The notes under the pieces are model-generated. The model searched no databases. It saw nothing but the letters and a program-made list of their open reading frames with translations, and had not been told where the DNA came from. From an uncultured Verrucomicrobiae bacterium (GTDB taxonomy: Bacteria; Verrucomicrobiota; Verrucomicrobiia; Limisphaerales; Palsa-1400), in NCBI GenBank assembly GCA_963764165.1, contig CAVXRD010000004.1:160001-224000 (forward strand): a stretch of DNA of 64,000 bases, given 5' to 3'. Each line of letters begins with the position of its first letter. Position 1 is the stretch's first letter. Positions 5,268 through 41,954 of the stretch are shown here, piece after piece. The position numbers and the translations under genes were made by a program.

Positions 5268-5817
5268 GTGCGGGCATTTGACAGCCATAGTGCCTAAAGA
5301 TTTAGAACAGCTCAAGCTACAGGCAAATGAACAGCGCAAATCGGAGTCAGTTGAACGATTTTCCTCAAGGTTCCGCCGTCGATTTTGCCGCGACCCAATG
5401 GACCTCTGTCTTGCGTCAAAAAAGGCAAGTGAAGACAAGGAGGAATGGGTTCCGTTGCGGCGCGGATGGTTTCTCGGCGGCCAGAAATTCCGAAAGGAAC
5501 TGCTGGCCCAGATGAGCGAACGACGCCGTGCCAGCCATTACGGGCAGGAAGCAGCGGAGAGCGACATCCAACGCGCGGAATGCGTGGTGGAATCGGATTT
5601 GGGAAGGCTCGGATGGAAGGAGGCGCAACTGGGCCGACGGCGGAAGGGAGATCCGAAATAGGTGGCCATCGCCTTGCGCCTGAGGAAAGAATCGGCGATG
5701 CCGGTGAAATGGATAGCGGAGCGGTTAAAGATGGGATCGCCGGGATCGTTGTCGAACCTGCTCCGCCAAAAGCGCAAATGACAAATATCCAAATATGTAA
5801 TTATGTGGGACTGACCG
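5268..5817 (+). repeat. 550-bp direct repeat, copy 1: chimeric remnant of an ECF-sigma 5' fragment, a RAYT-like transposase 3' end and the element end
   Basis: Near-identical to 6548-7088. Encodes DFAATQWTSVL in one frame, then LRRGWFLGG..KGDPK*VAIALRLRKESAMPVKWIAERLKMGS (internal TAG at 5659-5661). Ends caaatatgtaattatgtgggactgaccg. Confidence 0.85.
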
Positions 5818-5890
5818 CTTTTTTGACCCCTTTTTTCGTGGCGTTTAATCACGTGTTGTTCCTTCGAATACAGTATCGTGATGACGAGCC

Positions 5891-6505
5891 ATGAAGAATA
5901 CAAGGTTACCACGCTCGTCATCGAGTTTGATTGCGCTAACGTTATTGATTTTGGTGCTCGTGCTTATATTCTTGCCGCGCTCAAAGAAATTTGTGCTTTT
6001 GGACGGCACGAGGGTGACTATTTTGGCTCCGAAACCTTTTGCAACCTTGCATGACTCTATTTATCACGTTAGCACTTGGACACAAGATGGCCATACCGGC
6101 GAAATGACCTTGCATGGCGACTTTGAGCGAAACCCTATTTTGACATTCAGCGTCGCGAATGATGATCATGCCTTCTATATCCTCTACGATTGCGATGTCA
6201 TGCTGCGTCTGCTTAAAATCGACACAAAACAGAGCTTTCACGGTTCTGTTGACTTGCTTGCCTCAAATGGGATTGTTGCTAGCTCTTCGCTCTACGTGGA
6301 GGAAGGAAGTAAAAGCGATTGGCTAGGAGCTTTGAACTGCCTAGAGCACATGACAGCGACTGAATTCCAAAAGAATTCCATGCCAACATTGGATGTTGGG
6401 ATTTTACGGATGTATGCCAGACAGGACCTTGTGGTATCCCATATTCGGCGACAAGTGAGTGGCATGTATGGGGGAAAATCGTCTGTTTACGGTATCCGGA
6501 AATAG
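5891..6505 (+). CDS. orphan hypothetical protein with an N-terminal membrane anchor
   Basis: 204-aa ATG ORF with hydrophobic LIALTLLILVLVLIFL; visibly AT-richer than core genes; lies between the two direct repeats. Confidence 0.7.
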   Translation: MKNTRLPRSSSSLIALTLLILVLVLIFLPRSKKFVLLDGTRVTILAPKPFATLHDSIYHVSTWTQDGHTGEMTLHGDFERNPILTFSVANDDHAFYILYDCDVMLRLLKIDTKQSFHGSVDLLASNGIVASSSLYVEEGSKSDWLGALNCLEHMTATEFQKNSMPTLDVGILRMYARQDLVVSHIRRQVSGMYGGKSSVYGIRK

Positions 6506-6547
6506 GGCGCGTTAATGATTGTAAGTGGAAAGAGGTCAACCATTAGG

Positions 6548-7088
6548 GTGCGGGCATTTGACAGCCATAGTACTTAAAGAGTTAGAACAGCTCAAGCCAC
6601 AGGCAAATGAACAGCGCAAATCGGAGTCAGTTGAACGATTTTCCTCAAGGTTCCGCCGTCGATTTTGCCACGACCCAATGGACCTCTGTCTTACGTCAAA
6701 AAGGGCAAGTGAAGATAAGGAGGAATGCGTTCCGTTGCGGCGCGGATGGTTTCTCGGCGGCAAGAAATTCCGGAAGGAACTGCTGGCCCAGATGAGCGAA
6801 CGACGCACTGCCAGCCATTACGGGGCGGAAAGCGACATCGAACGCGCGGAATGCGTGGTGGAATCGGAATTGGGAAGGCTCGGATGGAAGGAGGCGCAAC
6901 TGGGCCGACGGCGGAAGGAGGATCCGAAAAAGGCGGCCATAGCCTTGCGCCTGAGGAAAGAATCGGCGATGCCGGTGAAATGGATAGGGAAGCGGTTAAA
7001 GATGGGATCGCCGGGATCGTTGTCGAACCTGCTCCGCCAAAAACGCAAATGACAAAAATCCAAATATGTAATTATGTGGGACTGACCG
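6548..7088 (+). repeat. 541-bp direct repeat, copy 2 (RAYT-like 3' remnant)
   Basis: Copy of 5268-5817 with a 9-bp deletion (caggaagca) and no internal stop; frame ends ..SLSNLLRQKRK* at 7052. Confidence 0.85.
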
Positions 7089-7196
7089 TTGTTTTTACAA
7101 CTGCCCTCTGCCAAAATCACCCAGATCAAAGAGTTCACGCCAGCGGTCTGGGCCAAAGCGAGAGAGAACAAGCAATCGCTCGTTCAAGCAGCGTGA
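7089..7196 (+). pseudogene. C-terminal fragment of an IS66-family transposase
   Basis: Translates LFLQLPSAKITQIKEFTPAVWAKARENKQSLVQAA*, resembling the IS66 TnpC tail (RLP...I.ELTP.AW). Confidence 0.55.
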
Positions 7197-7252
7197 GCGC
7201 ACGAAGGCATTAATGTTTTCCTCGATGCGAGCGAGCCGCAAATACGGCCGAG

Positions 7253-7996
7253 CTACTTTCGCTCGATCATCTTTCGAGGCGTAGGGTCTGTCGCCGGCTC
7301 GTCCATAACTTGCACATTTGGATGAACCAAAGGGATCGCTGCCTTTGAGCCGGCTACGGCCGTGGCAGAATATTCCAAATTGTAACTTTCGTTTGTATGA
7401 TAGACTCCCTTCGCATCCTTGTAATCCCAAAAAAAGCTAATTAACCCATTGGTTGTTGTTCCCACAAGGTAGCCGAGATAATTGCTTTTGGCATCACAGA
7501 CCTCCACCCGCCAATCTGAATGGGGAGCGGCCACCCGCGCAAAGACCCACATTTGGCTACCGGCGACGTTCCACGGAAGAAAAGTAATCCAATTCGAAAG
7601 AATAATAGAGTTTGTTGCGCTGTAATATAACGGTTCCCCGGAACCGTCATCGGCATCGTCTTCCAAATAAACATCATAAAGGCCATTCGGACAGTCTTGG
7701 GTGTGCCAATGTGCAGAGTAACGGGCAGCAGAGTCTTGGCAGATGCTGACGCTCATAGGCGACCCCGTGCTATGATTTACAATCAGGTAAATTCGCTTGT
7801 CGTTGAAGTTGGACACGTTCACTTTGAATGGCAAACTCACATCACCCTCAAGAATTTCTCCGTTGGTCAAATTAAGGAACTCCAGTGGCCGCAACCCTGG
7901 ATGATTCGCTGACAGAGACGTCGCCGGGTGTTGGCAGCCGTTAAGGATTATCCAAAAAAACGATCCCACTAACAGGATGAAAGCTTGCTTCGCCAT
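7253..7996 (-). CDS. hypothetical lipoprotein with Ig-like, beta-rich domains
   Basis: Signal peptide with lipobox-like ILNGC; WHTQDCPNGLY resembles the Big-domain W.T...NG.Y; AT-richer than the backbone. Confidence 0.65.
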   Translation of the reverse strand: MAKQAFILLVGSFFWIILNGCQHPATSLSANHPGLRPLEFLNLTNGEILEGDVSLPFKVNVSNFNDKRIYLIVNHSTGSPMSVSICQDSAARYSAHWHTQDCPNGLYDVYLEDDADDGSGEPLYYSATNSIILSNWITFLPWNVAGSQMWVFARVAAPHSDWRVEVCDAKSNYLGYLVGTTTNGLISFFWDYKDAKGVYHTNESYNLEYSATAVAGSKAAIPLVHPNVQVMDEPATDPTPRKMIERK

Positions 7997-8312
7997 CTGA
8001 CTGAGCCTCTGCGGGTTCACTCACTAAGGAACCCGCTTTTCGCGCACCTTGTCAATCAGGAAATGGCGGTATCCAACCGGCCAATGTTGAGCGGGATTCG
8101 GAAGGGCGGCCGACCTTGCGCGGCGGCGCAACCGGCAGAAGCGCGGTTAATGCGTGGCCGCTCAGGCGGATACATCGGAAGTGTCACCCGTTAGGGCGTT
8201 GTGTCAACAGATAAAACGCTTCCGTCCTCAATTTTCTTATTGCGCTTTTCCTTCGCTGCAAAAGTCTTCTTTACAGGACGCATCCGATCCCTTCCTCTCG
8301 CATTCGGCTTCG

Positions 8313-10211
8313 TCAATTCCCCAGAATCCGATCCGCGAAAACAACCGCCACACCCATCAAGGCCGCGCCTGCGATCAATCCGGATGCAACCGGGAAGGTG
8401 AATTCCTCGGAACTCTTCGGCGCGGCTTTGGTGTAAATCCAGCTAATCACCGCGCCCACAAAAAAGAGGAAGCTGTAGTACCACTGGAATGTCCATGCCA
8501 GCCCGAGCGCGCCGGCCGAGGGGATGTATTTCTCGTGCTTCGGAAAGATGAATCCGAGCACCGGCAGGATGATTCCCACGATCCCGCCAATCACCATGGA
8601 TTTGACCTTGATTGGCTCCATCGTTTCGAAACCCTTGCTCAACGCCTCCGCGATGGCTTTCCAGGCCTGGGCGGCGGGCGCGCCAAATTTCGCCCCGCCC
8701 AGCGCTTCGGCGTGCGGGCCGATAATGACCCGGTAGGCCAGCACCGTTGTCAGGGTGCCAATGAAGATGCCAAAAAATTGCGCCAAAAACTGCTTGCGCG
8801 GATTGGCTCCCAGCAAATAGCCGCTCTTCAAATCGGTCAGCAAATCCGCAGATGATGCCGCCGAGGCAGCGGTGATGTTGGCGGCCATCAAATTGACGTT
8901 CATGTTGCGGGGGCTTAGCCAGCCGAAGGTCAATTGGGTCACTTTTCCCATCGCGCCCATGGGCGTGGTGTCGGTTTCGCCGGTCACGCGGCACGCCACC
9001 AGCGCGAGGAAAAAGCTCAAGACCACGGCCACCGTTGTTTGCCAAAGAGGCATTTTCAGCGTGTAATGCGCCAGAACCGACAGCCCCGCCCACCCGAAAA
9101 TTTGGCCCGCAAAGAACCACGACATCGGCGGTTCGATGGCCTCCATTTCGTCCTTGGGCGCGGTTCGGTGAAACATCGAACCCAGCCCTTGCATGGCGCG
9201 GGCAATCGACCGCCATTGGGCCAAAAAGGAAACCAGGCTGGAAGTCAGCATGCAGGCCACCCCGCCCCAAACGGTCCACCCAATCAATGTGGGATAACTG
9301 GCCGCGCCGGTGATAAGCCCCTGCTGCTGCAAATTTGGAACGAACACCGCCCAGCAAAGCGTTCCGCCGATAATCATGCTAATGCCAACCCTCATCCCGC
9401 TGATTGCGCCGGCGGCGATGAAAACCGGATCCCATTGAAGCTGAACCGTGCGCGACAGCCATTCCTTTCCCAGCAAATGCTCGTTCGCTTTGCCGACAAT
9501 GGCATCAAGGGAATAAGGCTCCAGCTTAGCGCTAATCAAATGCACGCCTTCGCTCCAAAAATCGCTGATGGCGGCCAGGACGCCCGCGATGCCGAGCGCC
9601 CTTGCCGCCCGCCTGCCCTTTTCGCCATGGCTGTGGAGCGCGCGCAGCGTCTCCGCCGCGGCGATGCCGCTGGGAAAGCGCAATTGCTCGACGTTGATCA
9701 TCTGCCGTTTCATCGGGATTGCCATCGTCACACCGAGCACCGCCAGCAGAAAGACCCATCCGAGCATCAACGGCAGCGGAACGATCTCGTTATGATTAAT
9801 CATGATGTAGGCCGAGAAAGCGGAAACGAGCGTTCCGCCCGTTGAATAGCCCGCCGAGCTGGCGGTCGATTGCATGCAATTGTTCTCGAGGATCGACATT
9901 TGCGATCCCGCCAGGCCCAATTTAAAAAAGGTCGTCCAAAGCGCGTAGGACATGATGCAGGCCGTGATCGCCACGCCCAGGAGCCAGCCGGATTTCAGGC
10001 CGACGTAGACGTTGGTGGTGGAAAGCGCGCCGCCGAGAATCAATCCCATCACGACCGCGCGGACGGTCAGTTGGGGGGTATTGGCGCCGCGCGGTTTGTA
10101 AACTTTCTCGAACCATTGGCGTTCGATTTCCTCGGGAGTTCCCTTGAACCCCTCGATGGGCAACTCGTAATCGTCCTCAGGATTCGCGGCTGGGGGCGGC
10201 GTTTGATTCAT
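8313..10211 (-). CDS. OPT-family oligopeptide transporter
   Basis: QLTVRA, NVYVGLKSG, ENNCMQSTASS, LRFPSG.A.AE and DLKSGYLLGANPRKQ motifs; polytopic membrane protein. Confidence 0.93.
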   Translation of the reverse strand: MNQTPPPAANPEDDYELPIEGFKGTPEEIERQWFEKVYKPRGANTPQLTVRAVVMGLILGGALSTTNVYVGLKSGWLLGVAITACIMSYALWTTFFKLGLAGSQMSILENNCMQSTASSAGYSTGGTLVSAFSAYIMINHNEIVPLPLMLGWVFLLAVLGVTMAIPMKRQMINVEQLRFPSGIAAAETLRALHSHGEKGRRAARALGIAGVLAAISDFWSEGVHLISAKLEPYSLDAIVGKANEHLLGKEWLSRTVQLQWDPVFIAAGAISGMRVGISMIIGGTLCWAVFVPNLQQQGLITGAASYPTLIGWTVWGGVACMLTSSLVSFLAQWRSIARAMQGLGSMFHRTAPKDEMEAIEPPMSWFFAGQIFGWAGLSVLAHYTLKMPLWQTTVAVVLSFFLALVACRVTGETDTTPMGAMGKVTQLTFGWLSPRNMNVNLMAANITAASAASSADLLTDLKSGYLLGANPRKQFLAQFFGIFIGTLTTVLAYRVIIGPHAEALGGAKFGAPAAQAWKAIAEALSKGFETMEPIKVKSMVIGGIVGIILPVLGFIFPKHEKYIPSAGALGLAWTFQWYYSFLFFVGAVISWIYTKAAPKSSEEFTFPVASGLIAGAALMGVAVVFADRILGN

Positions 10212-10391
10212 CCAACCGACGCTGTCCGACGGTCAGGTGAAGTTCAAGGAGAAAATCTGAGCTAGCGAGTCGAATTCCTCACTTTTCTCCTGAGGGATGG
10301 ACGTGCGCGTTTGTAGTATCAATCATCGGCCTGACCCCTTCGTTAACTTTGTTCCCTTCTGTTCAAACACCTTTTTTTTCGGGTTTGAGAG

Positions 10392-10781
10392 TTACGCGAC
10401 GGGTTGAACCAGATTAATCAGGTTGCCACACGTGTCCTCAAACAATACCGCAGTGATCGGCCCCATATTCTTCGGCTCACCACGAAACTGGACGCCGCGC
10501 TCTTTAAGCCGTTGAAATTCTGAATGGACATCGCTTGTTATGAATGCGGTTAAAGGAATCCCGGCGTCGTACAACGCCTTCTGGTAAACCTGCGCTGGCG
10601 GGAAAGCCATCGGGTCCAAAACAAGTTCGACCCCATCGATTCCCTCGGGCGACGACACAGTCAACCATCGAAATGTCCCCATTCGGACGTCATTCTGTTT
10701 CACAAAGCCCAGCTTCGTTGTGTAAAACTCGAGGGCGCTGTCCTGGTTTTTCACCATAATGCTCGCTATCTTAATTTTCAT
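10392..10781 (-). CDS. VOC/glyoxalase-family protein
   Basis: ALEFYTTKLGF..RWLTV..ELVL..FEDTCGNLINL. Confidence 0.92.
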   Translation of the reverse strand: MKIKIASIMVKNQDSALEFYTTKLGFVKQNDVRMGTFRWLTVSSPEGIDGVELVLDPMAFPPAQVYQKALYDAGIPLTAFITSDVHSEFQRLKERGVQFRGEPKNMGPITAVLFEDTCGNLINLVQPVA

Positions 10782-10864
10782 AATATTTTCTAAGCTTCAT
10801 TTCTATGACGAACGAATCAAGGCTTTTTGGAAATTTAACCGTGTTATTGTTGAATTCACTTAAT

Positions 10865-10893
10865 TTGAACCTTTTTCGAGACCGTGGCACAAA
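10865..10893 (+). promoter_or_regulatory. candidate ECF promoter TTGAAC-N15-GGCACAAA, copy 1
   Basis: The same motif with the same spacing recurs at 11430-11458. Confidence 0.55.
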
Positions 10894-10898
10894 AGGGA

Positions 10899-11471
10899 AT
10901 GGATCATGATGAGAGCGTCGCCGCGGCTTTGAAACGCCGCGATCCCGCGTCCATCGAAATGGTGATTGAGACGCTCGGGACGCGGCTGCTGCGTTCCGCC
11001 ACCCTGCTCTGCGGCAATGAGACCCTCGCCCAAGATTTGGTGCAGGATGCTTTTGTCGAGGCGTGTCGATCCATCCACCGTTTTCGCGGGCAGTCGAGCC
11101 TTTACACTTGGCTGCATGCCATACTTCTGAATCTGACGCGCCGCCACTTTCGGGACAACAAACGGCTCGTCTCCGAGAACGAGGTGGCGCTTTCCGAACT
11201 ACCCGCTGCGGAAATTGAGTCGAGCGCACTGGATTTGGAGTTTGCTTCAACGGAATTGGCTCGGGCGCTGGGCAGGCTATCGAGCGCGCATCGGGAGGTG
11301 ATGGTCTTGCGCTTCTACGAGCAGATGAAGATCGCCGATATGGCACGGCATCTGGGGTTGTCCACCGGCACCGTCAAATCTCGTCTGCATTACGCCATCC
11401 AGGAGTTGCGGAAAAATCTGCCGGTGGAATTGAACCTTTTCGGCGCGGGCGGCACAAAGGAAAAGAAATGA
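10899..11471 (+). CDS. ECF RNA polymerase sigma factor
   Basis: AQDLVQDAF, FRGQSSLYTWL and GTVKSRLHYA (regions 2 and 4). Confidence 0.93.
   Translation: MDHDESVAAALKRRDPASIEMVIETLGTRLLRSATLLCGNETLAQDLVQDAFVEACRSIHRFRGQSSLYTWLHAILLNLTRRHFRDNKRLVSENEVALSELPAAEIESSALDLEFASTELARALGRLSSAHREVMVLRFYEQMKIADMARHLGLSTGTVKSRLHYAIQELRKNLPVELNLFGAGGTKEKK
11430..11458 (+). promoter_or_regulatory. candidate ECF promoter, copy 2, upstream of the anti-sigma gene
   Basis: ttgaaccttttcggcgcgggcggcacaaa in the last codons of the sigma gene. Confidence 0.5.
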
Positions 11472-11992
11472 ATTGCGGGCAAATACAGAATCTTCTCTGC
11501 GGACTCACGGACGGTTCGCTACCGCCGCGAACGGCTGCCGCCGCCGAGGAGCATCTCAACGCCTGCCCCGCTTGCCGCCATGCGCGGGAACGCGAACGCG
11601 CGGTTTCCAAGGCTCTTTCCACGCAATTTGAAAACGCCGCGAATTCCGTGTCCTTTGACGAAGCGGCTCGCCGCAAGATGGCCGCGGGGGTTCAACGGCG
11701 CATCGCGAACCCGGGCACCGCGCCGGCAATGCCGTGGTGGAGACGCGTCGCCCTGCCCTTTGGGCTCGGCGTCGCGGGAATTGCGCTGGGCGCATTGCTG
11801 ATGCAGCAATCCGTCTCAACAGGAACTCGCAGGCAGCCGGAGCCGTCCGCCCGCAACGCCACGGGCGCAATTCACATGGAGATTTCCTACTCTCAGCCCG
11901 TTTACACATTCCGGAGGCAGAGCAACACTATTATTGACTCAATCGCTGAGAGTTCGCTGACCGCCGAAGAAACATTCCAGCAGGAGCGATAA
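11468..11992 (+). CDS. zinc-binding (zf-HC2) transmembrane anti-sigma factor
   Basis: MNC...HLNACPAC (HxxxCxxC), one TM helix, ATGA overlap with the sigma gene. Confidence 0.88.
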   Translation: MNCGQIQNLLCGLTDGSLPPRTAAAAEEHLNACPACRHARERERAVSKALSTQFENAANSVSFDEAARRKMAAGVQRRIANPGTAPAMPWWRRVALPFGLGVAGIALGALLMQQSVSTGTRRQPEPSARNATGAIHMEISYSQPVYTFRRQSNTIIDSIAESSLTAEETFQQER

Positions 11993-12015
11993 ACGATTCA
12001 AAAATTCAAACCACT

Positions 12016-12924
12016 ATGAATATATTCCGCACCAAATGCATTATCCTGTGCGCTCTTGTATCGTGCGCGACGTCAGCACTCGCAGGCGACACTCCTAGTC
12101 CAAAACCGGACGGAGATTTCCCGTATGTCATCATGTTCGAGACGGGGAGCGTCGACTTCGCACAGGGAGACGCCATAACGATCTCGGAGCTGCGCGGCTC
12201 CACTAACCGCATTGTGCAAGGCGGCACGTATTGCATTACCGGCGCCTACACACTCGATTCGCAAGATGCGGCAGACCTGTGCTTTTATGCCACTACAACA
12301 AACAAGACGGCCTCGAAGGTGGCTTCGGAGCAGAGTGTGCGAGTGTCGAAAGGCTCTGGATCGTTCCGCCTTGTTAAACGCATGGACGACCCGGGCTATT
12401 TGCATTTGTCGTTTTATGCGCATGGACACAATGTCGGCGGAGTTTATTTCGGCCAGGAACCGTGGGTAATGCGCCGCAAACCAGCTCCTCACTCCAATTC
12501 TGCGGGCGGCGCGCAAAAATATATCCCCAAAGGTCCAAACGATGCGCTTATCCATTATCTCGGCGACCCCGTTCCGCCGCCCGCCGAGTTGGATGCAGCG
12601 TATTCCAAGGACGGATTGGCGCGCGCCATCGACACTGCCGCAGCCAATGCGAACATTAAAATCGCGAAAGTGGAAATCGACGATTCGGAATTCCCTTTCC
12701 TGGTGGCGCTGGATTTCGCCAACAACGGCGACAAGGAAAAGCTAAAGGCGCAAATCGCCAAGATGCCGACCTACGCCGTAACAGGAGGAGTCGGCGGCGA
12801 CACAACCTACGCCACGAGCATCACTCCGACGAGCGTCTTTCCACCCAACTCATACCAAACAATCTACCACCGCCTACTGCTCCGCGAATCGGTGCTCTTC
12901 GAAAGATTCACCGCCACGCAATAA
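12016..12924 (+). CDS. secreted hypothetical protein
   Basis: Signal peptide (..CATSALA/G); 302 aa; third gene of the ECF operon. Confidence 0.75.
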   Translation: MNIFRTKCIILCALVSCATSALAGDTPSPKPDGDFPYVIMFETGSVDFAQGDAITISELRGSTNRIVQGGTYCITGAYTLDSQDAADLCFYATTTNKTASKVASEQSVRVSKGSGSFRLVKRMDDPGYLHLSFYAHGHNVGGVYFGQEPWVMRRKPAPHSNSAGGAQKYIPKGPNDALIHYLGDPVPPPAELDAAYSKDGLARAIDTAAANANIKIAKVEIDDSEFPFLVALDFANNGDKEKLKAQIAKMPTYAVTGGVGGDTTYATSITPTSVFPPNSYQTIYHRLLLRESVLFERFTATQ

Positions 12925-12968
12925 TTTCGCCATGCACTTTTGCGCTCGCTCGATTCGTTGCAGGCACT

Positions 12969-13877: not shown

Positions 13878-13975
13878 GGGAAAAGTCTACAAAACCATTG
13901 GATGGCTGACGATACAAAATCTTATGGGGCGTGGATGGCCACCTTCCGCGCAATGGCAAACAATGATTATCCCCT

Positions 13976-14043: not shown

Positions 14044-14064
14044 TCGGCGGATGCGACGGACGAC

Positions 14065-20961: not shown

Positions 20962-20966
20962 AAATT

Positions 20967-31937: not shown

Positions 31938-31938
31938 T

Positions 31939-33574: not shown

Positions 33575-34354
33575 AAAATATCTGTATCCATAGAGCCGCG
33601 ATCAACATCCCGCTTGTCACTCCACTTTTGGAACACCGATCCGATACGCACATTTTTGGCGGTTATCGCCGCGGTTCTCTTCTCCACCGGTGCAGCGCAG
33701 GGGCAAGAGACGAATTCTTGCACCAGAGTGGCCAACCAACTTGTGAGCTTGATCAATGCGGGCAATTACGCCGGCATCCAGACCAATTTCAACAAGGAGA
33801 TGGACGCGGCGCTGCCGCTGGACAAATCGAAGGCGTTTTTCCGCAGGCTGTCGCAGCAGGCGGGAAGGATACAGAAACTCGGCGAGCCGCGGCCCGAGGG
33901 CGTGGCGATGGTTTATTCCGCGAAGTTCGAACGGGGCACGTTCGATATGCAGATCGCGCTGGACGATCACGGGTTGATTGCCGGCCTTCTCTTCAAACCG
34001 CACACGGCGACGAAACCCGCGCTGGAAAACCATCAGGCGCAGTTGGATCGCTACACGAAAGTTGCCAGCCAACTCGTCGAGTTGATCAACGCGGGCAGCT
34101 ACGCCAGCATCCAAGCCAAATTCAACAAGGAGATGGACACAGCGCTGCCGCTGGATAAATTGACCGAGTTCTTCAAAGGGCTGACGCAACAGGCGGGGAA
34201 AATTCAAAAGATCGGCCCGCCGCAACCCGCCGGCGAAGGGATGGTTTTCCCCGCGGAATTCGAAAAGGCCGCGGTCGACATGCAGCTTGCGCTGGACGGC
34301 AGTGGCCGGATCGCGGGGCTTACCTTCACGCCGCACGCGCCGGCGAAGCCCTAG
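33572..34354 (+). CDS. secreted protein with two tandem DUF3887-like domains; original ATG at 32108, IS-supplied GTG at 33572
   Basis: Signal peptide ..FSTGAAQG; internal duplication of LINAG.YA.IQ..FNKEMD.ALPLDK...IAGL.F.PH. Confidence 0.8.
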   Translation: MKISVSIEPRSTSRLSLHFWNTDPIRTFLAVIAAVLFSTGAAQGQETNSCTRVANQLVSLINAGNYAGIQTNFNKEMDAALPLDKSKAFFRRLSQQAGRIQKLGEPRPEGVAMVYSAKFERGTFDMQIALDDHGLIAGLLFKPHTATKPALENHQAQLDRYTKVASQLVELINAGSYASIQAKFNKEMDTALPLDKLTEFFKGLTQQAGKIQKIGPPQPAGEGMVFPAEFEKAAVDMQLALDGSGRIAGLTFTPHAPAKP

Positions 34355-34371
34355 TCTGCTCATATAAAAAA

Positions 34372-34902
34372 TTGCGATTGAATTCGACGCCCGCAGACGA
34401 ACGCAAGTTCCTGGAGCTGGTGAATGAGAATCAAAACAGGATTCTCAGGGTCTGCCGCGTCTATGCCTGGAATTCCGCTGACCAGGACGATTTGTATCAG
34501 GAAATCCTGTCCCAGATTTGGCGCGGCCTGCCCGGCCTGAAAGTAGAAAAATTCGCCAACACCTGGCTTTATCGCGTGGCCATCAACTGCGCCATGTCAT
34601 TCGTCCGCAAGCGCGCATCACGCTCTGAACGAGTCGTTCATTTCGAGCCCGCCGACCTGACGCGCGCGATTGAATCGCGGCAGACAATTGAAGAGAACAA
34701 GGATGACCGAATTGCAAATCTTTACACGGCCATCTACAAACTGGACGCGATAGAGAAAGCTCTCGTCACCCTTTTCCTGGAAGACTTCACCTACGAACAA
34801 ATCGCGGAAGCCACGGGCATCAACGCCAATCACGTGGGCGTCATGCTGCACCGGGCCAAGAAAAAGCTTTCCGCTCTGATGAAGGAGGCGCCAAGTGAAT
34901 GA
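34372..34902 (+). CDS. ECF sigma factor
   Basis: DDLYQEI, TWLYRVAIN and YEQIAEATGI...VGVMLHRAK; start uncertain. Confidence 0.9.
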   Translation: MRLNSTPADERKFLELVNENQNRILRVCRVYAWNSADQDDLYQEILSQIWRGLPGLKVEKFANTWLYRVAINCAMSFVRKRASRSERVVHFEPADLTRAIESRQTIEENKDDRIANLYTAIYKLDAIEKALVTLFLEDFTYEQIAEATGINANHVGVMLHRAKKKLSALMKEAPSE

Positions 34903-36394
34903 CGACGATTTGAAGAAACTTTGGCAGCAGCAGCCGCTGAGGGTGCCGGACATATCGGCGGCGCAACTGGTTTCGGCCATGCAAAGCAAGACGAGCCAGC
35001 TTCGCCGCATCGTGGACGCGCGCGATCTTCGTGAAGTTCTGGCCAGCGCCTTTGTTATCATTATTTTTGGAATTTTCTATTTCACTATATATAACAATCC
35101 GATTTCGCGTGTCGGCGACTTGATTGTCATTGGGGGCGCGATATTTATTGCCTGGAAGCTTGTTTACACCCGCCGGTCTCATCCGCCCGCGCCGCCGGGA
35201 GCGGCTACCGTAGAATCTCTGCGGGCGGAACTGAATTCGGTGCGCGCTCAGTCGCGTCTATTGGGGTCGGTTCTGTGGTGGTACCTGCTCCCGCTGGCTA
35301 TCGGCGAGTTGATCGCTACCTGGGGCCTGCAGATCGATCTCTTTTCCAAAAGTTTTGGCGCGTTGATTTTCATTGCGGTAAATGCGTTCATCTATCGGCT
35401 CAATCAGCGGGCGCGGGCCAAACAGCTTCTTCCCGTCGAAGCGCAATTGGAATCGCTGCTTCATTCAGCCGAAACCGGCGAGCCGCTGGATGCAACGCAG
35501 GCAGCAAGTCTTCGTCCGATAGTGGTTTCGATGGCAGCCGCCGGCCATGTAAAACCCGCTGAATTCAAAGTCGCTTTTTGGCAAATCGCCATTCCTGGCG
35601 TAGCCGGATTTGTCGGAATATGGTTCTTTTTGATGATTGGCCTGGGCGTTTACCATGAAAACTGGAAGCCCAAAGAGCCGGCCGTTCAGTCCAATCCCGC
35701 TGCGGAAACAAATCGCTACTTCGTCGTCGTTCAGAAGGCAGTTGAGCTGTTCAACGCAGGCGATTACGCCGCCATGCAAAAGCTATACAATCCGGGAATG
35801 GCTCAGGCGTTTCCGCCACAGAAAAATTCCGCGTTTTATACCGACCTCGCAACACGTTGCGGCAAGATCGAAAGCTTCGACGGGCCCACCACCAACGGCT
35901 ATCACGGCTGGACCGCGTTCTGGCTGCATTGCCAGCACGATGAGTTGGTCATGAGTCTCGCGCTGGATGCGAATGGCAAAATCGCCGGAATCTATTTCCA
36001 GCCTGCCTGGCTTTACCTGGATATCAAATTGTTCATCGCCCGATCTTTCAATTGGCCGCACATGGTTTTGCTCGTGCCCTTCTTTTTGGCCGGGTTGCTA
36101 TATTCAAGAATGCTCCAAAAACTCACGGAGCGCGCGGTGGGGATCAGCACCCTGGGAATTCATCTGCATAAAGGACGAAACCTCGTTCTCTGGGACGAAA
36201 TAAAAGAGGTCCGGCTGCTGAGGATCCTAAATATTCACTCCCTTTGGTTGATCAAAGAATCCGGCGAAAAGACAATCATGCCTTGGAGTTCCTTGGACCG
36301 ACATTCAGACTTGAAGGCGGCGGTGGAAGCCTTTGCCCCGGCAAACCATCCCATACGAAAACACCTGTCTCTGCTAAAACGAACGAGCAGGTAA
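34895..36394 (+). CDS. multi-TM putative anti-sigma/sensor protein with a DUF3887-like domain
   Basis: DDLKKLWQ N-terminus, several TM helices, and an FNAGDYAAM...LALDANGKIAGIYFQP domain. Confidence 0.75.
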   Translation: MNDDDLKKLWQQQPLRVPDISAAQLVSAMQSKTSQLRRIVDARDLREVLASAFVIIIFGIFYFTIYNNPISRVGDLIVIGGAIFIAWKLVYTRRSHPPAPPGAATVESLRAELNSVRAQSRLLGSVLWWYLLPLAIGELIATWGLQIDLFSKSFGALIFIAVNAFIYRLNQRARAKQLLPVEAQLESLLHSAETGEPLDATQAASLRPIVVSMAAAGHVKPAEFKVAFWQIAIPGVAGFVGIWFFLMIGLGVYHENWKPKEPAVQSNPAAETNRYFVVVQKAVELFNAGDYAAMQKLYNPGMAQAFPPQKNSAFYTDLATRCGKIESFDGPTTNGYHGWTAFWLHCQHDELVMSLALDANGKIAGIYFQPAWLYLDIKLFIARSFNWPHMVLLVPFFLAGLLYSRMLQKLTERAVGISTLGIHLHKGRNLVLWDEIKEVRLLRILNIHSLWLIKESGEKTIMPWSSLDRHSDLKAAVEAFAPANHPIRKHLSLLKRTSR

Positions 36395-36416
36395 AGGGAA
36401 TCAAACCCTCTTTTCG

Positions 36417-36530
36417 ATGCGAATAGTTATATAATCTCCAAAAAGTGGCAACATCCGTTACACTGTTGATTATAAAGCATTTAAGTGGCAACAAAAATGG
36501 CAACAAGGTGGCAACAAACCGGCAACATTT
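36417..36530. repeat. dispersed intergenic element, copy 3, with phased GGCAAC units
   Basis: Matches 4425-4504 and 4610-4702; ends ggcaacaaaaat-ggcaacaaggt-ggcaacaaacc-ggcaacatt. Confidence 0.8.
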
Positions 36531-36541
36531 TGGAAAAGGTT

Positions 36542-36723
36542 GAGCGCGGCTGTGTTGAAGACCAGCCGCAGCCACTTCGAAATAAGGGGCACGTTGGAAA
36601 GAGCACCGCGACTCGCCAGCCGCAGTTCCGAAGTTTTGACATGCTTTTCGGAGATGGCCGCAACAAGATTCGCCTTCGGTTGTTTGAGTATTGCTGCGGC
36701 TGGTCTTCGATACAGCCGCGCTC
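36542..36723. repeat. REP-like inverted repeat (GCGCGGCTGTGTYGAAGACCAGCCGC family)
   Basis: Two arms in inverted orientation; a second element lies at 56675-56769. Confidence 0.8.
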
Positions 36724-36818
36724 CGCCTGTCGGACTGCGTCCATCACCGCTTTTAATTGCGCCCGCCGCAACTCTTCGGGTTTGCGCGCCTGATTTCGAT
36801 TCCGAGTAAAGTGGCCTG

Positions 36819-37028
36819 ATGACAGCGGCAAAAGTTATTGAGGAAATCATGCATCTCCCTCGTGAAGAGCAATCCCAGGTCCTCGAATTTGCTCTTGAAC
36901 TCAAGCGCAAGCGCCAGCTTTCGGGAAAGGAGTTATCCTCGTTGGCGCAACGGATGGTTGACTCGGACGATCCCATTGAGGTGGAACGAATGAAATCGGA
37001 GATCATGCGCGGCTTTTACGGAGACTAG
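36819..37028 (+). CDS. small hypothetical protein, antitoxin-like
   Basis: 69-aa ATG ORF; MTAAKVIEEIMHLPREEQ pattern typical of small addiction-module components; the following ORF appears decayed. Confidence 0.6.
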   Translation: MTAAKVIEEIMHLPREEQSQVLEFALELKRKRQLSGKELSSLAQRMVDSDDPIEVERMKSEIMRGFYGD

Positions 37029-37124
37029 CCGTGCCGCGAATCCGAGAGAAGCCATCCCGCGAACCTGTTGGCCCAGATAGGTGAGCGCTGAAATCAATTT
37101 GTTGAAAATGCTATGGCGGGTGTG

Positions 37125-37196
37125 AGTGCCATTAGGCACGGCATATTTGTAGCAACCACGACGAAAGAGTCCCAAGCCCCGTAGGGAGCGACATAT
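37125..37196. repeat. REP-like arm (GCCCCGTAGGG.GCGACATAT family)
   Basis: Inverted relative to 37831-37900. Confidence 0.65.
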
Positions 37197-37249
37197 TCCG
37201 GGCACAAAAGCAGCCAATGCCAGCCGGTTGACGATGCCGCTCCTGACGC

Positions 37250-37542
37250 GCCGACCGTGATATTGGACGCGATCAAAGGCTTGTGCCCCATGGCCGCCAG
37301 CACCGAAACGAGCGTCGTCTTCCCGCACCGTTTTTCCGGCGATTCAATCGCCACAGAAGCCACCGCATCGCGCAGCTCGAAGGTATAAGTGTGCAGCACC
37401 CACACCGCCAAAGCCGCCGCAGCGTGCTCATTGAGCACGACATGCCGCGTGATGACCGCTTCAATATCCGTCAACAACCCGCCAAATCGACCGCCTCTGG
37501 GTATGGCGGCACCGCGTCAAAGAGAAAAGAATCCTGTTTCAT
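37250..37542 (-). pseudogene. truncated, frameshifted DUF3631-like (mobile-element ATPase) gene
   Basis: PYPEAVDLA/LTDIEAVITRHVVL...LAVWVLHTY...SPEKRCGKTTL (Walker A); frameshift near 37476; ends abruptly. Confidence 0.65.
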
Positions 37543-37614
37543 AATTGTCATTTTTCCGTTTGATCCTGCCACCGCCACTTGGACAAAGCTGTCTAGGAGG
37601 GCAGATTTCTTAAT

Positions 37615-37764
37615 GGTAGCGGACCGTCCCGGTCGCCTCCAATCGGCGTCCCGCCAAGTGGCCGCCGCGATCAAAAGTGCCGGTCCTGGATGGACAAAGG
37701 CATCTGAAACTAAAGATGCATTCGGCGGGACGCCAAATGCGGCGGTCGAGACGCCCGCGCTCCC
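37615..37764. repeat. REP-like inverted repeat (GG.AGCG.CCGTCCCGG / CGAGACGCCCGCGCTCCC family)
   Basis: Imperfect palindromic arms in non-coding DNA. Confidence 0.5.
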
Positions 37765-37830
37765 ATGGATTCAACTGAACCGCTCCGGTCAAGCTCCGTA
37801 GACGCGGTACAGTTCGAGTAACGTCAAAGC

Positions 37831-37900
37831 ATATGTCGCCCCTACGAGCCTTAATTCCAGAGAATGCGGGGTTCTACAACGATGTCGCACCTACGGCGCT
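37831..37900. repeat. REP-like arm (ATATGTCGCCCCTACG..CTACAAC..GCACCTACGGCGCT)
   Basis: Complementary to 37125-37196; same family as 13976-14043. Confidence 0.65.
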
Positions 37901-38008
37901 GCTAAAAAGCGAAATGCGGTCGGCGAGGGCGCCAACCGCATCTTAGACGTCGGAAATTAGATGCGTCTGCCCTGACGAGTATGATTGAATGTGGGTGAGC
38001 CTCTCAAA

Positions 38009-38081
38009 AATATTTGGGCGGCGACGCAGCGCCGCCTTACCTCAATTTGGTAGGGCGGACCTGCGTGTCCGCCCAAATATT
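38009..38081. repeat. GTAG-type REP doublet (GGTAGGGCGGACCTGCGTGTCCGCC), left of the island
   Basis: Two back-to-back palindromes with spacer TCAATTT; partner at 43021-43086. Confidence 0.85.
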
Positions 38082-38225
38082 CTCACCTGCTTTCAATCGC
38101 ACCCTGCGGGGAGGGCGCCTCTCACAATACACCCGGCTTGTCGAGCAGGTTGAAGCATGGTAAACTTGGGAAATGAGCGCGACATTGACGATCAATTTGG
38201 ACGCGGACGGAGCGCCCTCAAAATA

Positions 38226-38318
38226 GGGGGCAAACATAATCACATATTTGGCACAGAGATGCCACATTGGGCCGTGAAAACAGGAGATGCAAATATGCAA
38301 TCGTACTGGACTGACACC
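38226..38318. mobile_element. 93-bp miniature element made of two inverted RAYT-like ends
   Basis: Left end GGGGGCAAACATAATCACATATTTG; right end CAAATATGCAATCGTACTGGACTGACACC (20/26 identical to the end at 5790-5815). Confidence 0.6.
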
Positions 38319-38359
38319 TCCATTCCACGCCAGCAAATCTTTCACCGGAACCAAGGGAA

Positions 38360-38446
38360 AGCAAAACTGACCACGGCGGAAGTCAAAGCCTGGATTAGAT
38401 AGAGGCGGCGGTGAGCGGCAGTTTCGTTGTGGATGCGTCCGTCGCG
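38360..38446 (+). pseudogene. vapBC-like remnant: antitoxin tail plus PIN-toxin N-terminus
   Basis: ..KLTTAEVKAWIR*RRR* overlapping GTG-SGSFVVDASVA (PIN first-strand VVDAS motif), then truncated. Confidence 0.5.
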
Positions 38447-38490
38447 TCTCCTTTTCCGCTTTCCCGCTCACGCTTACAGCTACAAACTCC

Positions 38491-39306
38491 TTAATTGGAT
38501 ATCTTCAACCGCTGCATGGACTTGAGTGCTCTACTTGCAGCAGACTGGACCAAAGGCTCGGCGTCATTACTCCATTCCCTCAGCGCCGAAGCAACCGCCT
38601 CATCGTAACCTTCATTCCTCTCTAAAACATGAATAACCTCCAATCGCTGATCGCCGTCTAAGACTTTCGCTCCTATTCTAATAAGAGATGGAAATCCTCG
38701 AGGCCCGAAAGCACCGATGCATTTGACCGTCGTACAAAATGCGCTATAATTGACCATCTCTTGTTCAACAGGAATTTTAGATCGTGGATGGGCCAAAACG
38801 TTTGCTCGTTCCTCCAATTTCGGAATTATGTGGCTAACGCTGTCTCCCAATACTCTAAATGCCAAAACGATAGCTTCGCCATTCGGCCCTTCGTCCAGCG
38901 GAGAGACCCGTGGCGACACAAAGGCACTTATTCTCACTTTCAACCGGGACCAAACACCCGGCTCAGTCAATAATGCAGATGGTCGACGCGTGTCCAAATT
39001 ATAATCCTTAGACAACCAATATAATAAAGTTGGAATGCATTTAGAACCCATACCTCTAATTGCATGCACCGTGTCAGGAGGAGGACTAAACCCACCAAAA
39101 TCGTGGTCGTAATGCGGTAAATCCGATACCCAGTCCGATAGAGTCCTTCCGTCATAAGAGGGGTCTAGCGCAGGTGTCGCCCAGAGATCTACAAAAATAA
39201 TAGATATGCAGACGATAAGCAGTATAACTATAACTATCGATATTTTACTTAAAGTCCTACCTCGAAGGGATCGCCCAGGATAATCACATATTTGACACAA
39301 TCTCAT
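38491..39306 (-). CDS. membrane-anchored HEAT-repeat-like hypothetical protein
   Basis: TM segment ISIVIVILLIVCISIIFV; PSYDGRTLSDW, AIRGMG..IPTLL and D..PLVQSAASRAL; AT-rich; ATG overlaps the REase stop. Confidence 0.7.
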   Translation of the reverse strand: MRLCQICDYPGRSLRGRTLSKISIVIVILLIVCISIIFVDLWATPALDPSYDGRTLSDWVSDLPHYDHDFGGFSPPPDTVHAIRGMGSKCIPTLLYWLSKDYNLDTRRPSALLTEPGVWSRLKVRISAFVSPRVSPLDEGPNGEAIVLAFRVLGDSVSHIIPKLEERANVLAHPRSKIPVEQEMVNYSAFCTTVKCIGAFGPRGFPSLIRIGAKVLDGDQRLEVIHVLERNEGYDEAVASALREWSNDAEPLVQSAASRALKSMQRLKISN

Positions 39307-40292
39307 TTTGGCAGCACATCAGGATACGGTCCAAGAAACCGTTCACCATTGAAATGAATCATATGGTCGGGGTCTTCCGCGATCCATACTTCGGATTCCC
39401 ATGCTATTTGTGAGACAAATGATTGCATGATCCGGCGGGTTTCAAACGCGGTGACAAAAACGAGGCCCGCCTTGCAGCCCGCAAATAATTCTTTGAGTTC
39501 CTTGCGACGTTTGCCGTCCACAGGCCCCGCACTTGTGACGGCTTCGATCAGCAATAGCCAATTTTTTTCGGTGTGGTGAACGATGACATCAGGAATTTTG
39601 GCGGCTGAGTCCAGTGTGACACCGAGAGACTTGAGGCGTTCAACCTCAAGATGAACGAATTTGTTTTCCGTGTCGCCGATGTAGATGACAACGCCGCCCG
39701 GAGCAAAGGCAGGACAAAATTGCTCGATGATTGCTTTGATGAGGGGATTCTGCCCACCCGGCGAAAGCGCCACCTGCGAACCGTCAGGCAATGTGACGGG
39801 CACGCGTGCGAGAGTCCGTTTCCGGGTAATCTCGTCCTTAATGGTCTCCCTGCTAGCAAGGTATTTTCCGACCGCCGGAGTCCATTTTCCGGTTCCAAAA
39901 GTCCGCAGCAATGCGAGTGCCGATGGTTCAATCTGATAGACCGTCTTCCCGCTGTTTGTTGGCCGATTTGGGTCGTCAGGGTTGCGGAGCAGCAATCCAG
40001 CCTCCACAAAAAACTTTACGGCATCGTCTCGAATTGTTTCACGAGTGTTGGGCGCGTAGCGAACCCCATATGCTTCGGCGATAAAATCGATGACTGGCGT
40101 GATGCCACGAAGGGGTGCTTGTGCATCTTCCCAAGAAACCTCTGGCCGAAGATCAAGCAACGCAAGCAAAGTGTAGGCGGCAGTCTCGTTTCTTTGCCTT
40201 GGCCCAAACTGCAACGCGGCAAGAATTTCGCCAGTTTCAGCGAGTTTCTGTTTTCGTGATTTTTCTAAACGATTTGGCCTATTGGTGGGCAT
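39303..40292 (-). CDS. BsuBI/PstI-family type II restriction endonuclease
   Basis: YAPNTRETIR, NPDDPNRPTNS, LSPGG, KIPDV and LIEAVTS.GP, WESEVW, HMIHFNGERFLGPY. Confidence 0.92.
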   Translation of the reverse strand: MPTNRPNRLEKSRKQKLAETGEILAALQFGPRQRNETAAYTLLALLDLRPEVSWEDAQAPLRGITPVIDFIAEAYGVRYAPNTRETIRDDAVKFFVEAGLLLRNPDDPNRPTNSGKTVYQIEPSALALLRTFGTGKWTPAVGKYLASRETIKDEITRKRTLARVPVTLPDGSQVALSPGGQNPLIKAIIEQFCPAFAPGGVVIYIGDTENKFVHLEVERLKSLGVTLDSAAKIPDVIVHHTEKNWLLLIEAVTSAGPVDGKRRKELKELFAGCKAGLVFVTAFETRRIMQSFVSQIAWESEVWIAEDPDHMIHFNGERFLGPYPDVLPK

Positions 40293-41769
40293 GAAGATGC
40301 TTTTCGACGAGTTTATCGAGTGCTTCTTGCGGTTGATCGAGCTGTTCCAATTCGTTTCCCATTGCCTTCAATGTTTTTCGGTCAGGATAGGCCAATTTGC
40401 GCAGGTCGGTGGCATTTACCTGCGTATGCCCGCTGAAACGCCGGAAATACTGGTCAGCCACCGTGGAATTTAGGAAGGCAAAAAGTCCGACCGCCAAGTC
40501 TCTATCCAGCCCGTGACCGTCAGCGTGGAAATAATTAAGATGGTTTTCAAATCCGAGCCATTCGGCATCCACGTCCCGCGGGTCGAATAGGCAGGCAACC
40601 AGGCGGCGGCGTTCCTCTTTGGATGTGAATCGTTTCGTGAGCAAATACACCCCGGATTTTACGAGCCGGGGCCGGGTTTCGTCATTGTCAAGAATGGCGT
40701 TAGGCTTGCGGGCATCCAGTTTCGGCCAATGGACAGTTCCACCATTGAAGTGGCATGGGTAAAGCAGGGGCACGGTTCCGCGCTCCGGCTTCATGCGCAA
40801 AGCATCTTTAAGACGAAAATCAACTACGCGCCCGGTTGAAACGGCAACTCCCAAAGAGGCAAGCGTTGCGCGCAATCCATCCATGACTTTTTTTGCGCTG
40901 GCATGACCTGAAGCGGATGGAATGTGAATGAATTTTTCCGAATCGTTTTCATGAACGATTTCCGCAAATGGGATTTTTGCCTCGACGACAATATCACCAT
41001 GTATCCCGCTGCTGCTGGAAACCACCAGCTTGCCGGGCTGCTTGCGGCCTTTCACGGCGTGGAAAATAATATTTTCCTGCAGCACGCTATCCTCACGGAA
41101 AGCCGCTCCGCGCGATTCAAAAACATGGAGGCGATGGAATTCCAGGTTGGCGAGCAAGTCTTCGCGAAAGGGGCGGAAATACGGGCCGTTGCAAAAACTT
41201 CTTGGGGTGATGGCCACGAGTTGCCCGCCGGGCGCGAGCAATCGGTGGATGAGCGCAATAAAGCCAGCGTAGAGATTGCTGGTTTCAACGCCTACATGGC
41301 GCAAAGCTCGCCTTTCCGCGGAATCGGTGCTGATTTTCCGATAGGGAGGATTTACGATGGCAGCATCGAAAACCGGCGGCTTCGCGCTGAATAAACTATC
41401 TCCAAGACAAGCCGACATTTCTTGAATGAAATCAGTCTCATGGATGGTGAAACTGAATTGAATTCCCGCGTTGTCGCAAATACGCTGGCAGTCCTGCATT
41501 TTTTCCAAAAGCGCATCCTGAATCAGCGGGTCGATCTCGAATAGCGTGGCTTCGACTGCGCTAACAGCGGCGCTGTTCACACATAGATGCGAAACGAAAG
41601 CTGCCGTGAGTGATCCGGCCCCGGCCCCAGCATCAAGCAAACGCACAACTTTGGGGAGCGGCGCGAACAAAGAAGCCATAAAATCAGCGACAGGAGCGGG
41701 GGTAAGGAATTGTCCAAGCTCCCCTTTTCGCTTGCGAGCTGCTGATTCTGCCACGGCCGCGGTTAACAT
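40279..41769 (-). CDS. N6-adenine DNA methyltransferase (gamma class, M.BsuBI/M.PstI-like)
   Basis: GQFLTP, LLDAGAGAG (motif I), NPPY (motif IV), PRSFCNGPYF and GHTQVNATDL. Confidence 0.93.
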   Translation of the reverse strand: MLTAAVAESAARKRKGELGQFLTPAPVADFMASLFAPLPKVVRLLDAGAGAGSLTAAFVSHLCVNSAAVSAVEATLFEIDPLIQDALLEKMQDCQRICDNAGIQFSFTIHETDFIQEMSACLGDSLFSAKPPVFDAAIVNPPYRKISTDSAERRALRHVGVETSNLYAGFIALIHRLLAPGGQLVAITPRSFCNGPYFRPFREDLLANLEFHRLHVFESRGAAFREDSVLQENIIFHAVKGRKQPGKLVVSSSSGIHGDIVVEAKIPFAEIVHENDSEKFIHIPSASGHASAKKVMDGLRATLASLGVAVSTGRVVDFRLKDALRMKPERGTVPLLYPCHFNGGTVHWPKLDARKPNAILDNDETRPRLVKSGVYLLTKRFTSKEERRRLVACLFDPRDVDAEWLGFENHLNYFHADGHGLDRDLAVGLFAFLNSTVADQYFRRFSGHTQVNATDLRKLAYPDRKTLKAMGNELEQLDQPQEALDKLVEKHLHAHQ

Positions 41770-41848
41770 GGCGTGAGGGTATCAAACTTGGCGTTGCTTC
41801 GCAATCGGGCAATATGGGTCAAAGGAAAGTCATCCTGAAAAATGAATC

Positions 41849-41954
41849 CACATAATCACATATTTGACACGTCGAAATCTCAAGGCTGCTTCGGTCGGAT
41901 GATCAAAATGGGATTGCCCGGAAGTTCCGCTGTAACAACGCTGGCTGCCTTTAC
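41849..41954 (+). mobile_element. RAYT-like left end plus decayed transposase 5' codons
   Basis: CACATAATCACATATTTGACAC followed by IARKFRCNNAGCLY, in register with the recalled family start MARKLRxxxxGAxY. Confidence 0.5.

Follow-up and report, generated by a model that had tools for sequence, protein, structure and literature searches.

TIRYT-type terminal repeats and their junctions with low-GC genes in a Verrucomicrobiae genome

The window considered here is a stretch of 64,000 nucleotides, positions 160001-224000 of contig C4 of an uncultured Verrucomicrobiae bacterium, whose 7.0-Mb assembly of 57% guanine plus cytosine (GC) is called G000 hereafter (C1, C2, C3 and C4 are contigs of it, the other G numbers denote related genomes and the L numbers related loci). 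A first-pass annotation of this window had pointed out one short motif at six places and linked it to the RAYT enzymes. The core of the motif is indeed found without mismatch at 5790 and 7061 on the minus strand and at 38236, 39280 and 41852 on the plus strand, and with three mismatches at 38290 on the minus strand. The motif belongs to a TIRYT/TIRtron element (TnpA-Y1 subclass 2.1), of which it makes up the terminal inverted repeat, and what the window contains are wrecks of such elements, namely two right-half remnants, one 100-bp miniature and two solo left ends, which lie among their neighbours as follows.

5268..5818, plus strand: remnant 1, a TIRYT 3' half with the right terminal repeat, fused behind about 150 bp from the start of an unrelated gene
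5824..5830, minus strand: tandem-duplicated head GGGGTCA outside the right end of remnant 1, with a linker of five to six A bases
5891..6505, plus strand: orphan gene (GC 0.46) pointing away from remnant 1, its product of 204 amino acids (aa) having a hydrophobic stretch at the N-terminus
6532..6538, plus strand: possible second head GAGGTCA, a one-mismatch 7-mer read by eye, facing the orphan gene 10 bases before remnant 2
6548..7089, plus strand: remnant 2, a direct repeat of remnant 1 (93% identical), right repeat core at 7061-7075
7089..7196, plus strand: 35-codon gene tail joined directly to the right end of remnant 2
7253..7996, minus strand: gene of 247 aa, GC 0.49, reading toward the 7061 end and thus a counter-example to outward orientation
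38133..38219, plus strand: internally deleted DUF6364/PIN toxin-antitoxin pair reading toward the 38236 end
38220..38320, no strand assigned: miniature element of 100 bp with inward-facing repeats (cores 38236 plus, 38290 minus) and no coding part
38328..38441, plus strand: tail of a Phd antitoxin gene with the opening codons of the gene after it, attached about 10 bases beyond the miniature end
38491..39306, minus strand: HEAT-like gene of 271 aa, GC 0.46, between two outward-facing ends
39264..39300, plus strand: solo left-type end (core 39280-39294), its inner side running into the 3' end of the restriction gene
39303..41769, minus strand: restriction-modification (R-M) operon of the BsuBI/PstI type
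41815..41821, plus strand: repeat head, where homology with a paralogous methylase start stops
41836..41930, plus strand: degenerate solo left end (core 41852-41866) with a possible decayed transposase start at 41913
42854..42958, minus strand: second copy of the methylase start (upstream region and first codons, 93%) without a repeat, the uninterrupted reference for 41815

Read from outside to inside, a site is made of a GGGGTCAG head, a short spacer and the core mentioned above. In the window, nine core matches with at most three mismatches were counted vs 1.55 expected, and the whole of G000 holds 7 exact copies, 12 with one mismatch and 36 with two. A search matrix built on 12 copies retrieved 45 sites at 18 bits or more in G000, compared to none in reversed or complemented controls, and a second round retrieved 51 sites of the window's repeat family, with 1 site in the control, along with 18 sites that belong to a sister family. 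Two shorter words had also been singled out. The lone CTGACCCC at 10331 is at chance level (1 found vs 1.20 expected) and comes without a repeat body, while the extra TTTGACCC at 5822 and 41816, although not enriched as a word (3 found, 2.46 expected), corresponds in both cases to a duplicated repeat head at a junction. A promoter scan of 38100-42000 stayed at chance level, the TTGACA of the left ends not being called as a promoter, and the search of sequencing runs gave a single weak match, with no run listed as RNA and no contig spanning the repeats.

The identification of the motif arises from G019, a genome of the same family, in which an intact Y1 gene encoding 309 aa (P0001) is located between two inverted copies of exactly the window's site. 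The proposal that the motif forms the end of a RAYT-like (Y1/HUH) element is thereby borne out, an intact enzyme gene with these ends, whose absence would have refuted it, being present; the element type is therefore known, having already been described in the literature, and the reading of the motif as a transcription-factor site falls. P0001 carries the HFH metal motif and the YVHLNP signature of the Y1 HUH core, and PF01797 matches all 17 aligned TIRYT-type members. In 112 related loci, heads of the GG[GT]GTC[AG]G type were seen at the left end in 89, at the right end in 69 and at both in 58; this set comprises the loci with a match of at least 45%, out of 118 (the other 6 being dropped), and many of those without both ends are broken by contig ends. 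In the predicted model of the enzyme, the fold matches TnpA-REP 4ER8 (Z 15.0, root-mean-square deviation (rmsd) 2.7), and residues 229-309 best match DnaA domain IV (4 entries, with middling Z of 6.3-6.8 and rmsd of 2.3-4.0), so that the C-terminal helix-turn-helix extension typical of subclass 2.1 would be provided by a DnaA-domain-IV-like fold. At the sequence level, no Pfam helix-turn-helix match was obtained in the 17 aligned members and no match of the C-terminal tail to solved structures, and folding the last 100 residues as a single sequence gave a poor model with helix matches only. The inverted repeats expected of a TIRYT, fitting GGGGWSAS, are present as GGGGTCAG heads on both sides of the G019 gene. 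A REPtron identity, as for the REP-associated RAYT of groups 2 and 3, was considered and rejected, the flanks of the aligned full-length genes being non-palindromic inverted ends and not GTAG-tagged repetitive extragenic palindromes (REPs); the score against NF047646 was 54.7, below the cut-off of 80.

In the window itself, only C-terminal halves of a TIRYT gene are present. Those preceding 5790 and 7061 are 48-49% identical to residues 195-308 of a full-length Y1 protein of G000, which agrees with the statement that right-type copies follow a transposase C-terminus; this does not hold for 38290, which closes the miniature. In the same line, the IARKFRCNNAGCLY peptide proposed as a RAYT start is present at 41913 and agrees with the beginning of P0001 at 6 of 14 residues, but the DNA stretch behind the 41852 repeat does no better than shuffles (scores of 37 and 35 vs a shuffled mean of 34). 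No intact enzyme gene for the window's end family was detected in G000, where the sole full-length TIRYT enzyme, 14 kb beyond the window and within a three-copy array, has the sister end sequence and YFH replacing the HFH metal motif. Because of these two features, the RAYT that was supposed to act in trans on these ends has found no working candidate in G000, and the end family of the window looks inactive there. The array in question (L001, C4:237800-243650) is made of three tandem sister-TIRYT copies separated by low-GC genes, namely one of 334 aa, one of 306 aa, and a gene tail together with a 136-aa membrane gene, and it is closed by a solo end of the window's family.

Joins at TGACCC sites had been anticipated, and the outer flanks argue for joins at a fixed distance from this motif. 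When homology to an uninterrupted copy was followed toward the repeat, accepting ends within 25 bases, it ended at -6 to -1 in 14 of 23 junctions (p 2e-4), and half of the 20 junctions breaking within 12 bases show C at -6 and a purine at -5. Over a larger set of ends, C+purine ending at -5 is found in 70 of 231 vs a background of 15%, and in 52 of 170 (p 3e-7) once ends with duplicated heads are left aside. Besides, a second head lies at most 50 bases outside 61 of the 231 ends, vs 17 and 24 in control windows, the commonest duplication consisting of a 7-base head and a 4-base linker, a form in which the end has been joined to the C+purine of the head itself. Four joins of left-type ends into their own element, at the junction register, occur in G004, and roughly half of the truncated bodies (14 of 26, by eye) break off at the start of another head. 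Long tandem runs of seven or more heads were also seen at single left ends in L140, L087 and L141.

Orphan genes had further been described just outside the ends. The ends do border low-GC genes without a family on that outer side, and this polarity extends well beyond the window, the scattered ends facing foreign-looking genes far more often than host genes. Neighbours with a GC content of at most 0.52 make up 34 of 57 on the outer side and 8 of 42 on the inner side in G000, compared to 9.9% in control gaps, and 28 of 68 outer, 1 of 35 inner and 14 of 157 distal genes in four relatives. In paired comparisons, only the outer gene is low in 24 and only the inner one in 5 of 52 pairs in G000 (p 0.0005), the figures being 22 and 4 of 65 pairs in the relatives (p 0.0005). 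Genes without any Pfam family account for 22 of 56 on the outer side and 2 of 28 on the inner side, two inner genes that also counted as outer ones having been dropped, and the inner genes are mostly metabolic. Syntenic flanks could be found for 4 of 51 relative loci; in G016, an 8-kb array with inward-facing heads near both borders sits between genes that are 21 bp apart in G000.

Back in the window, remnant 1 comprises a TIRYT 3' half at 5428-5775 with one internal stop, the core at 5790-5804 and a head ending at 5818, and the unrelated gene start fused to it in both remnants may be that of a sigma factor, which it seems to resemble. The duplicated head with its A linker recurs in the same pattern at G000 C1:318796. 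A paralogous locus at C2:137990-140213 has a single remnant unit and lacks the 5891 gene, the three copies of the unit in the window and C2 being about equally diverged. The 35-codon tail resembles the C-terminus of a transposase-like protein at C3:261648, which has no Pfam match and which we take to be of the IS66 type. The orphan status claimed for the 5891 and HEAT-like 38491 genes agrees with the lack of any relative of either among the candidates scored, so that their mobility could not be traced. Around these remnants, the segment 1841-8300, with aroC, a regulator and a repeat-rich block, separates an MFS from an OPT gene, two genes that adjoin each other in G001 and G002. It includes at 5021-5218 a dispersed promoter-like repeat that occurs about 50 times in G000 and whose conserved TGTTCTTTGACA box resembles an antitermination boxA, and at 8180-8300 a 120-bp repeat, also present in G002 and G004, that starts with a truncated sister-family head. 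In G004 the promoter-like repeat is often on the inner side of repeat chains; a general link of the ends with it was rejected, with 3 inner and 2 outer cases at 64 G000 sites and 16 and 3 at 89 sites in relatives.

In the second region, the two flanks of the miniature derive from two different toxin-antitoxin loci. An intact DUF6364/PIN pair (G000 C2:1442445-1443120) likewise has a left end behind it, the Phd antitoxin tail has an uninterrupted paralog at C4:314011-313898 (92%), and the miniature itself has a relative at C4:312206. The longest frame of the 38491 gene begins inside the 39280 repeat, and its product is HEAT-like by language-model features (0.95). Divergent HEAT-like membrane-anchored proteins are encoded outside TIRYT ends in three genomes (window 38491-39306, L077:2106-2885 and L239:2863-3552), the window protein and that of L077 being 25% identical over 215 residues. 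The complete R-M operon reported outside the ends is indeed a BsuBI/PstI-type pair, but its 3' end is on the inner side of the 39280 end, and no repeats were found beside its homologs in the flanks covered of four relatives (matches 73-78% identical). Homology to the methylase paralog at 42854-42958 stops 5 bases before the head at 41815, while the left end at 41836 has about 65 bp of inner sequence in common with G000 C2:1443117 and C2:283966. Between both copies of the methylase start, a nucleotidyltransferase-like gene and an Rv0078B-type antitoxin occupy 41951-42720. No empty site for the 36-43 kb segment came to light, synteny being absent in five relatives.

The idea that cargo genes read outward from the ends is contradicted by the counts. 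With 64 of 69 sites used (5 under 20 bits being dropped), the nearest outer gene in G000 reads away in 28 of 57 cases and toward the end in 29, and in G004, G007, G016 and G018 it reads away in 26 of 68 and toward the end in 42. Among the six window ends, outward reading holds at 5790, 39280 and 41852; the 7061 end adjoins the 35-codon tail and then a gene reading toward it, the 38236 end adjoins the deleted toxin-antitoxin pair, likewise reading toward it, and the 38290 end the antitoxin tail and then the 3' end of the HEAT-like gene. Around the elements retrieved by collection scans, neighbours are weakly co-directed with the transposase gene (67 of 102, p 0.002). Reuse of the same cargo at different ends is not seen either: in 284 outer flanks, the sequence common to two ends is one segmental duplication or consists of insertion sequence (IS) elements inserted into the head. 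Of 11 brackets, meaning two ends round a gene, 6 mix repeat families and 5 do not. Instead of whole genes with precise boundaries, gene tails (window 7089 and 38328) and cut frames are found, 12 of 89 outer frames running across the junction in relatives, and the sites impose no single cassette orientation. Integron-like arrays of defence and surface genes are thus a picture that the data do not support. The enrichment in defence content is modest: three methylases, three RHS proteins and one antitoxin were counted in 56 outer genes, 10 of which are IS genes.

A few observations on these flanks deserve mention. Two genomes carry an IS110-family element at one and the same base immediately outside the TIRYT head, with 95% identical flanks and, for one TIRYT element, at both ends (L159:8302 and 9325, L261:3901 and the L015 right end); the repeat looks like the target site of this IS element. 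G018 and G004 share the insertion position of a second IS type, which lies within the repeat head (L160:10999, L161:6503, L249:4208, L169:6971, L171:7691). In addition, right ends run straight into the middle of genes of the RHS-repeat kind or similar ones in L026, L053, L062, L109, L120, L162, L173 and L241, several of these joins fusing a frame that starts inside the repeat in frame to the cut gene; repeat-borne frames could thereby give orphan toxin modules a start codon.

We consider it somewhat probable that these loci are TIRYT remnants whose enzyme treats each end as an independent joining unit, with a nick at the C+purine outside the GGGGTCAG head. In such a mechanism, the C-terminal DnaA-like domain would hold the repeat body while the catalytic core, as predicted, would nick single-stranded DNA at a C|purine step 4-5 bases outside the head; by analogy with the C|T and C|A cleavage by TnpA-REP, the cut may be C|R, putatively on the inward-reading strand. 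The cut end would then be passed to another C+purine site: a near target would yield a head duplication, one in the flank a deletion, one in the element's own gene nested partial copies, and one on incoming DNA an attached foreign piece, often cut mid-gene. Brackets round single genes would build up end by end and be kept when the gene is useful or its loss harmless. The foreign genes may have been caught by resident ends, may have arrived with them or may be what erosion left; capture of foreign DNA is plausible, though doubtful as a real and frequent outcome.

Several results weigh against independently joined ends and against a capturing role. The C+purine peak of G000 is found at -6 instead of -5 (15 of 47), which is in line with the five-base A linker; the junctions of the window itself deviate from the modal register, 38320 by breaking at -10 and 41815 by one base, 10 of 20 junctions escape the C+purine rule, and inner breakpoints show no C+purine enrichment (12 of 32 vs a 31% background). 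No recent event was caught between close strains, the nearest relatives being 70-84% identical in matched blocks. Full-length elements from two collection scans lie mostly between ordinary genes, with neighbours at least 5 points below local GC in 5 of 43, and G000 has lineage-specific inserts (of 4.1 kb and 10.4 kb, vs 0.7-0.9 kb in relatives) that exceed in size the brackets within them. The polarity could also stem from selection on deletions rather than capture, the kin genomes are not independent, the 231-end and four-relative sets overlap, and gene calls come from the author's own simple caller.

Part of this fits passive debris, in which whole units transpose into neutral AT-rich hotspots, ordinary deletion follows, and the ends facing dispensable foreign DNA survive. 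Such an origin, which we regard as rather unlikely, accords with the host-like neighbours of intact elements, with the size of the G000 inserts, with R-M homologs lacking ends in the flanks covered, and with hotspots shared by the repeats, toxin-antitoxin fragments, other repeats and IS elements. Ordinary deletion, however, predicts neither breaks 1-6 bases outside the head nor a fixed C+purine; it leaves the tandem heads, the ends joined into their own gene and the bodies stopping at another head unexplained, and the paired outer/inner test controls for hotspot position. A dedicated capture system resembling an integron, with paired ends as attachment site, a trans-acting enzyme inserting oriented cassettes and cassettes moving between ends, appears improbable. 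Tight brackets round single frames (366 and 411 bp in G004), 8 brackets within 4 kb in G000, the low-GC genes that separate the copies of the three-copy array at C4:237.8-243.6 kb, the weak co-direction of neighbours with the transposase gene and the HEAT-like genes beside ends in three genomes would suit it, as would the window unit with a 5891 gene absent from the C2 paralog, but the direction of this last difference is not fixed by three about equally diverged copies. Against it stand the lack of outward bias, of shared non-IS cargo and of an intact enzyme for the window's end family in G000, together with the mixed brackets and the genes cut at junctions. As for an ordinary transcription-factor site upstream of accessory genes, its chances are negligible: the motif is AT-rich, intergenic and present in tens of copies, yet an intact transposase gene has it as inverted ends, which refutes such an origin, it also forms the ends of miniatures, and it lies behind gene stops as often as before starts.

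For TIRYT remnants with independently joined ends, the junction rule amounts to a precise cut prediction, C+purine at 4-5 bases outside the head, for which P0001/L005 offers an intact enzyme-end pair, and the outer-side bias in five genomes gives a directional statement replacing a vague nearness of repeats to accessory genes. We only tentatively entertain that TIRYT ends constitute an integrase-free capture platform, chromosomal ends being nicked at C|purine and joined one at a time to foreign DNA; were this true, a widespread 'domesticated' HUH enzyme would provide a direct route for orphan surface, toxin-immunity and restriction genes into arrays. If the joins do capture incoming DNA, they would represent a common, unrecognised gene-acquisition route and a DNA joining enzyme acting at short sites; if they do not, a clear picture of element erosion and island rearrangement is still obtained.

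Among known systems, integrons rely on a tyrosine recombinase, attC hairpins and a common cassette orientation. The present loci are like them in having a repeated site between the short, low-GC, family-less genes of an array, and unlike them in that no tyrosine recombinase, attC-like hairpin or common orientation is found, genes are often cut and no cassette occurs at two sites. The IS91/ISCR elements use Y2/Y1 rolling-circle enzymes with two unlike ends, whereas both ends are here alike and inverted; nevertheless, a single end joined to variable sites recalls one-ended IS91/ISCR events and IS-driven adjacent deletions, with deletions, partial tandem copies and attached passenger DNA as shared outcomes.

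The closest counterpart is the TIRtron/TIRYT (Di Nocera et al. 2013, PMC3733652), which in the accessible text corresponds to TnpA-Y1 subclass 2.1 (Quentin et al. 2018, PMC6006769) and to RAYT group 1 (Bertels et al. 2017, PMC5581495), the latter equation being stated in 10.1101/2020.03.09.984088. As far as the accessible text of these reports goes, the published repeat consensus is GGGGWSAS (PMC3733652, PMC6006769), 14.9% of surveyed strains carry genes of subclass 2.1 (PMC6006769), and biochemical tests are called for (PMC3733652, PMC6006769, PMC5581495). In the same parts of the text, a Y1/HUH gene with a long C-terminal helix-turn-helix extension, inverted repeats fitting GGGGWSAS, and repeats dispersed singly, in pairs or in groups with no REP hairpins claimed are all as found here.

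According to the text available of Corneloup et al. 2021 (PMC8266576), cleavage by HUH enzymes yields a 5' phosphotyrosine together with a 3' hydroxyl, and TnpA-REP cleaves at C|T or C|A close to its repeat and carries out strand transfer. The likeness to TnpA-REP/REPtron described there lies in the predicted 4ER8 catalytic fold and in the putative cleavage at a C-starting dinucleotide close to the bound repeat, with strand transfer as the following step. The REP enzymes, to judge from the same text, act on a GTAG-tagged hairpin, in contrast to the non-palindromic repeat of about 25-30 bp seen here, to the additional DnaA-like domain of the model and to the presumed C+purine step at a fixed distance.

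Laurenceau et al. (10.1101/2020.03.09.984088) reported subclass 2.1 TnpA-REP genes beside prochlorosin genes and proposed a role in diversification, later adding that causality was unresolved; that case shares with ours the full-length and truncated copies, often C-terminal halves, among variable accessory genes, and differs by its single gene family, facing orientation and absence of inverted repeats found. No activity of subclass 2.1 genes is reported in the accessible text of PMC3733652, PMC6006769, PMC5581495, PMC8266576 and 10.1101/2020.03.09.984088, and no cut-site signature, outer-side bias or capture role was found in the literature outside subscription papers, figures and supplements. 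Relative to the accessible TIRYT text (PMC3733652, PMC6006769, PMC5581495), the cut site, the junction rule, the head duplication and the foreign-gene bias are what the present loci add to the element.

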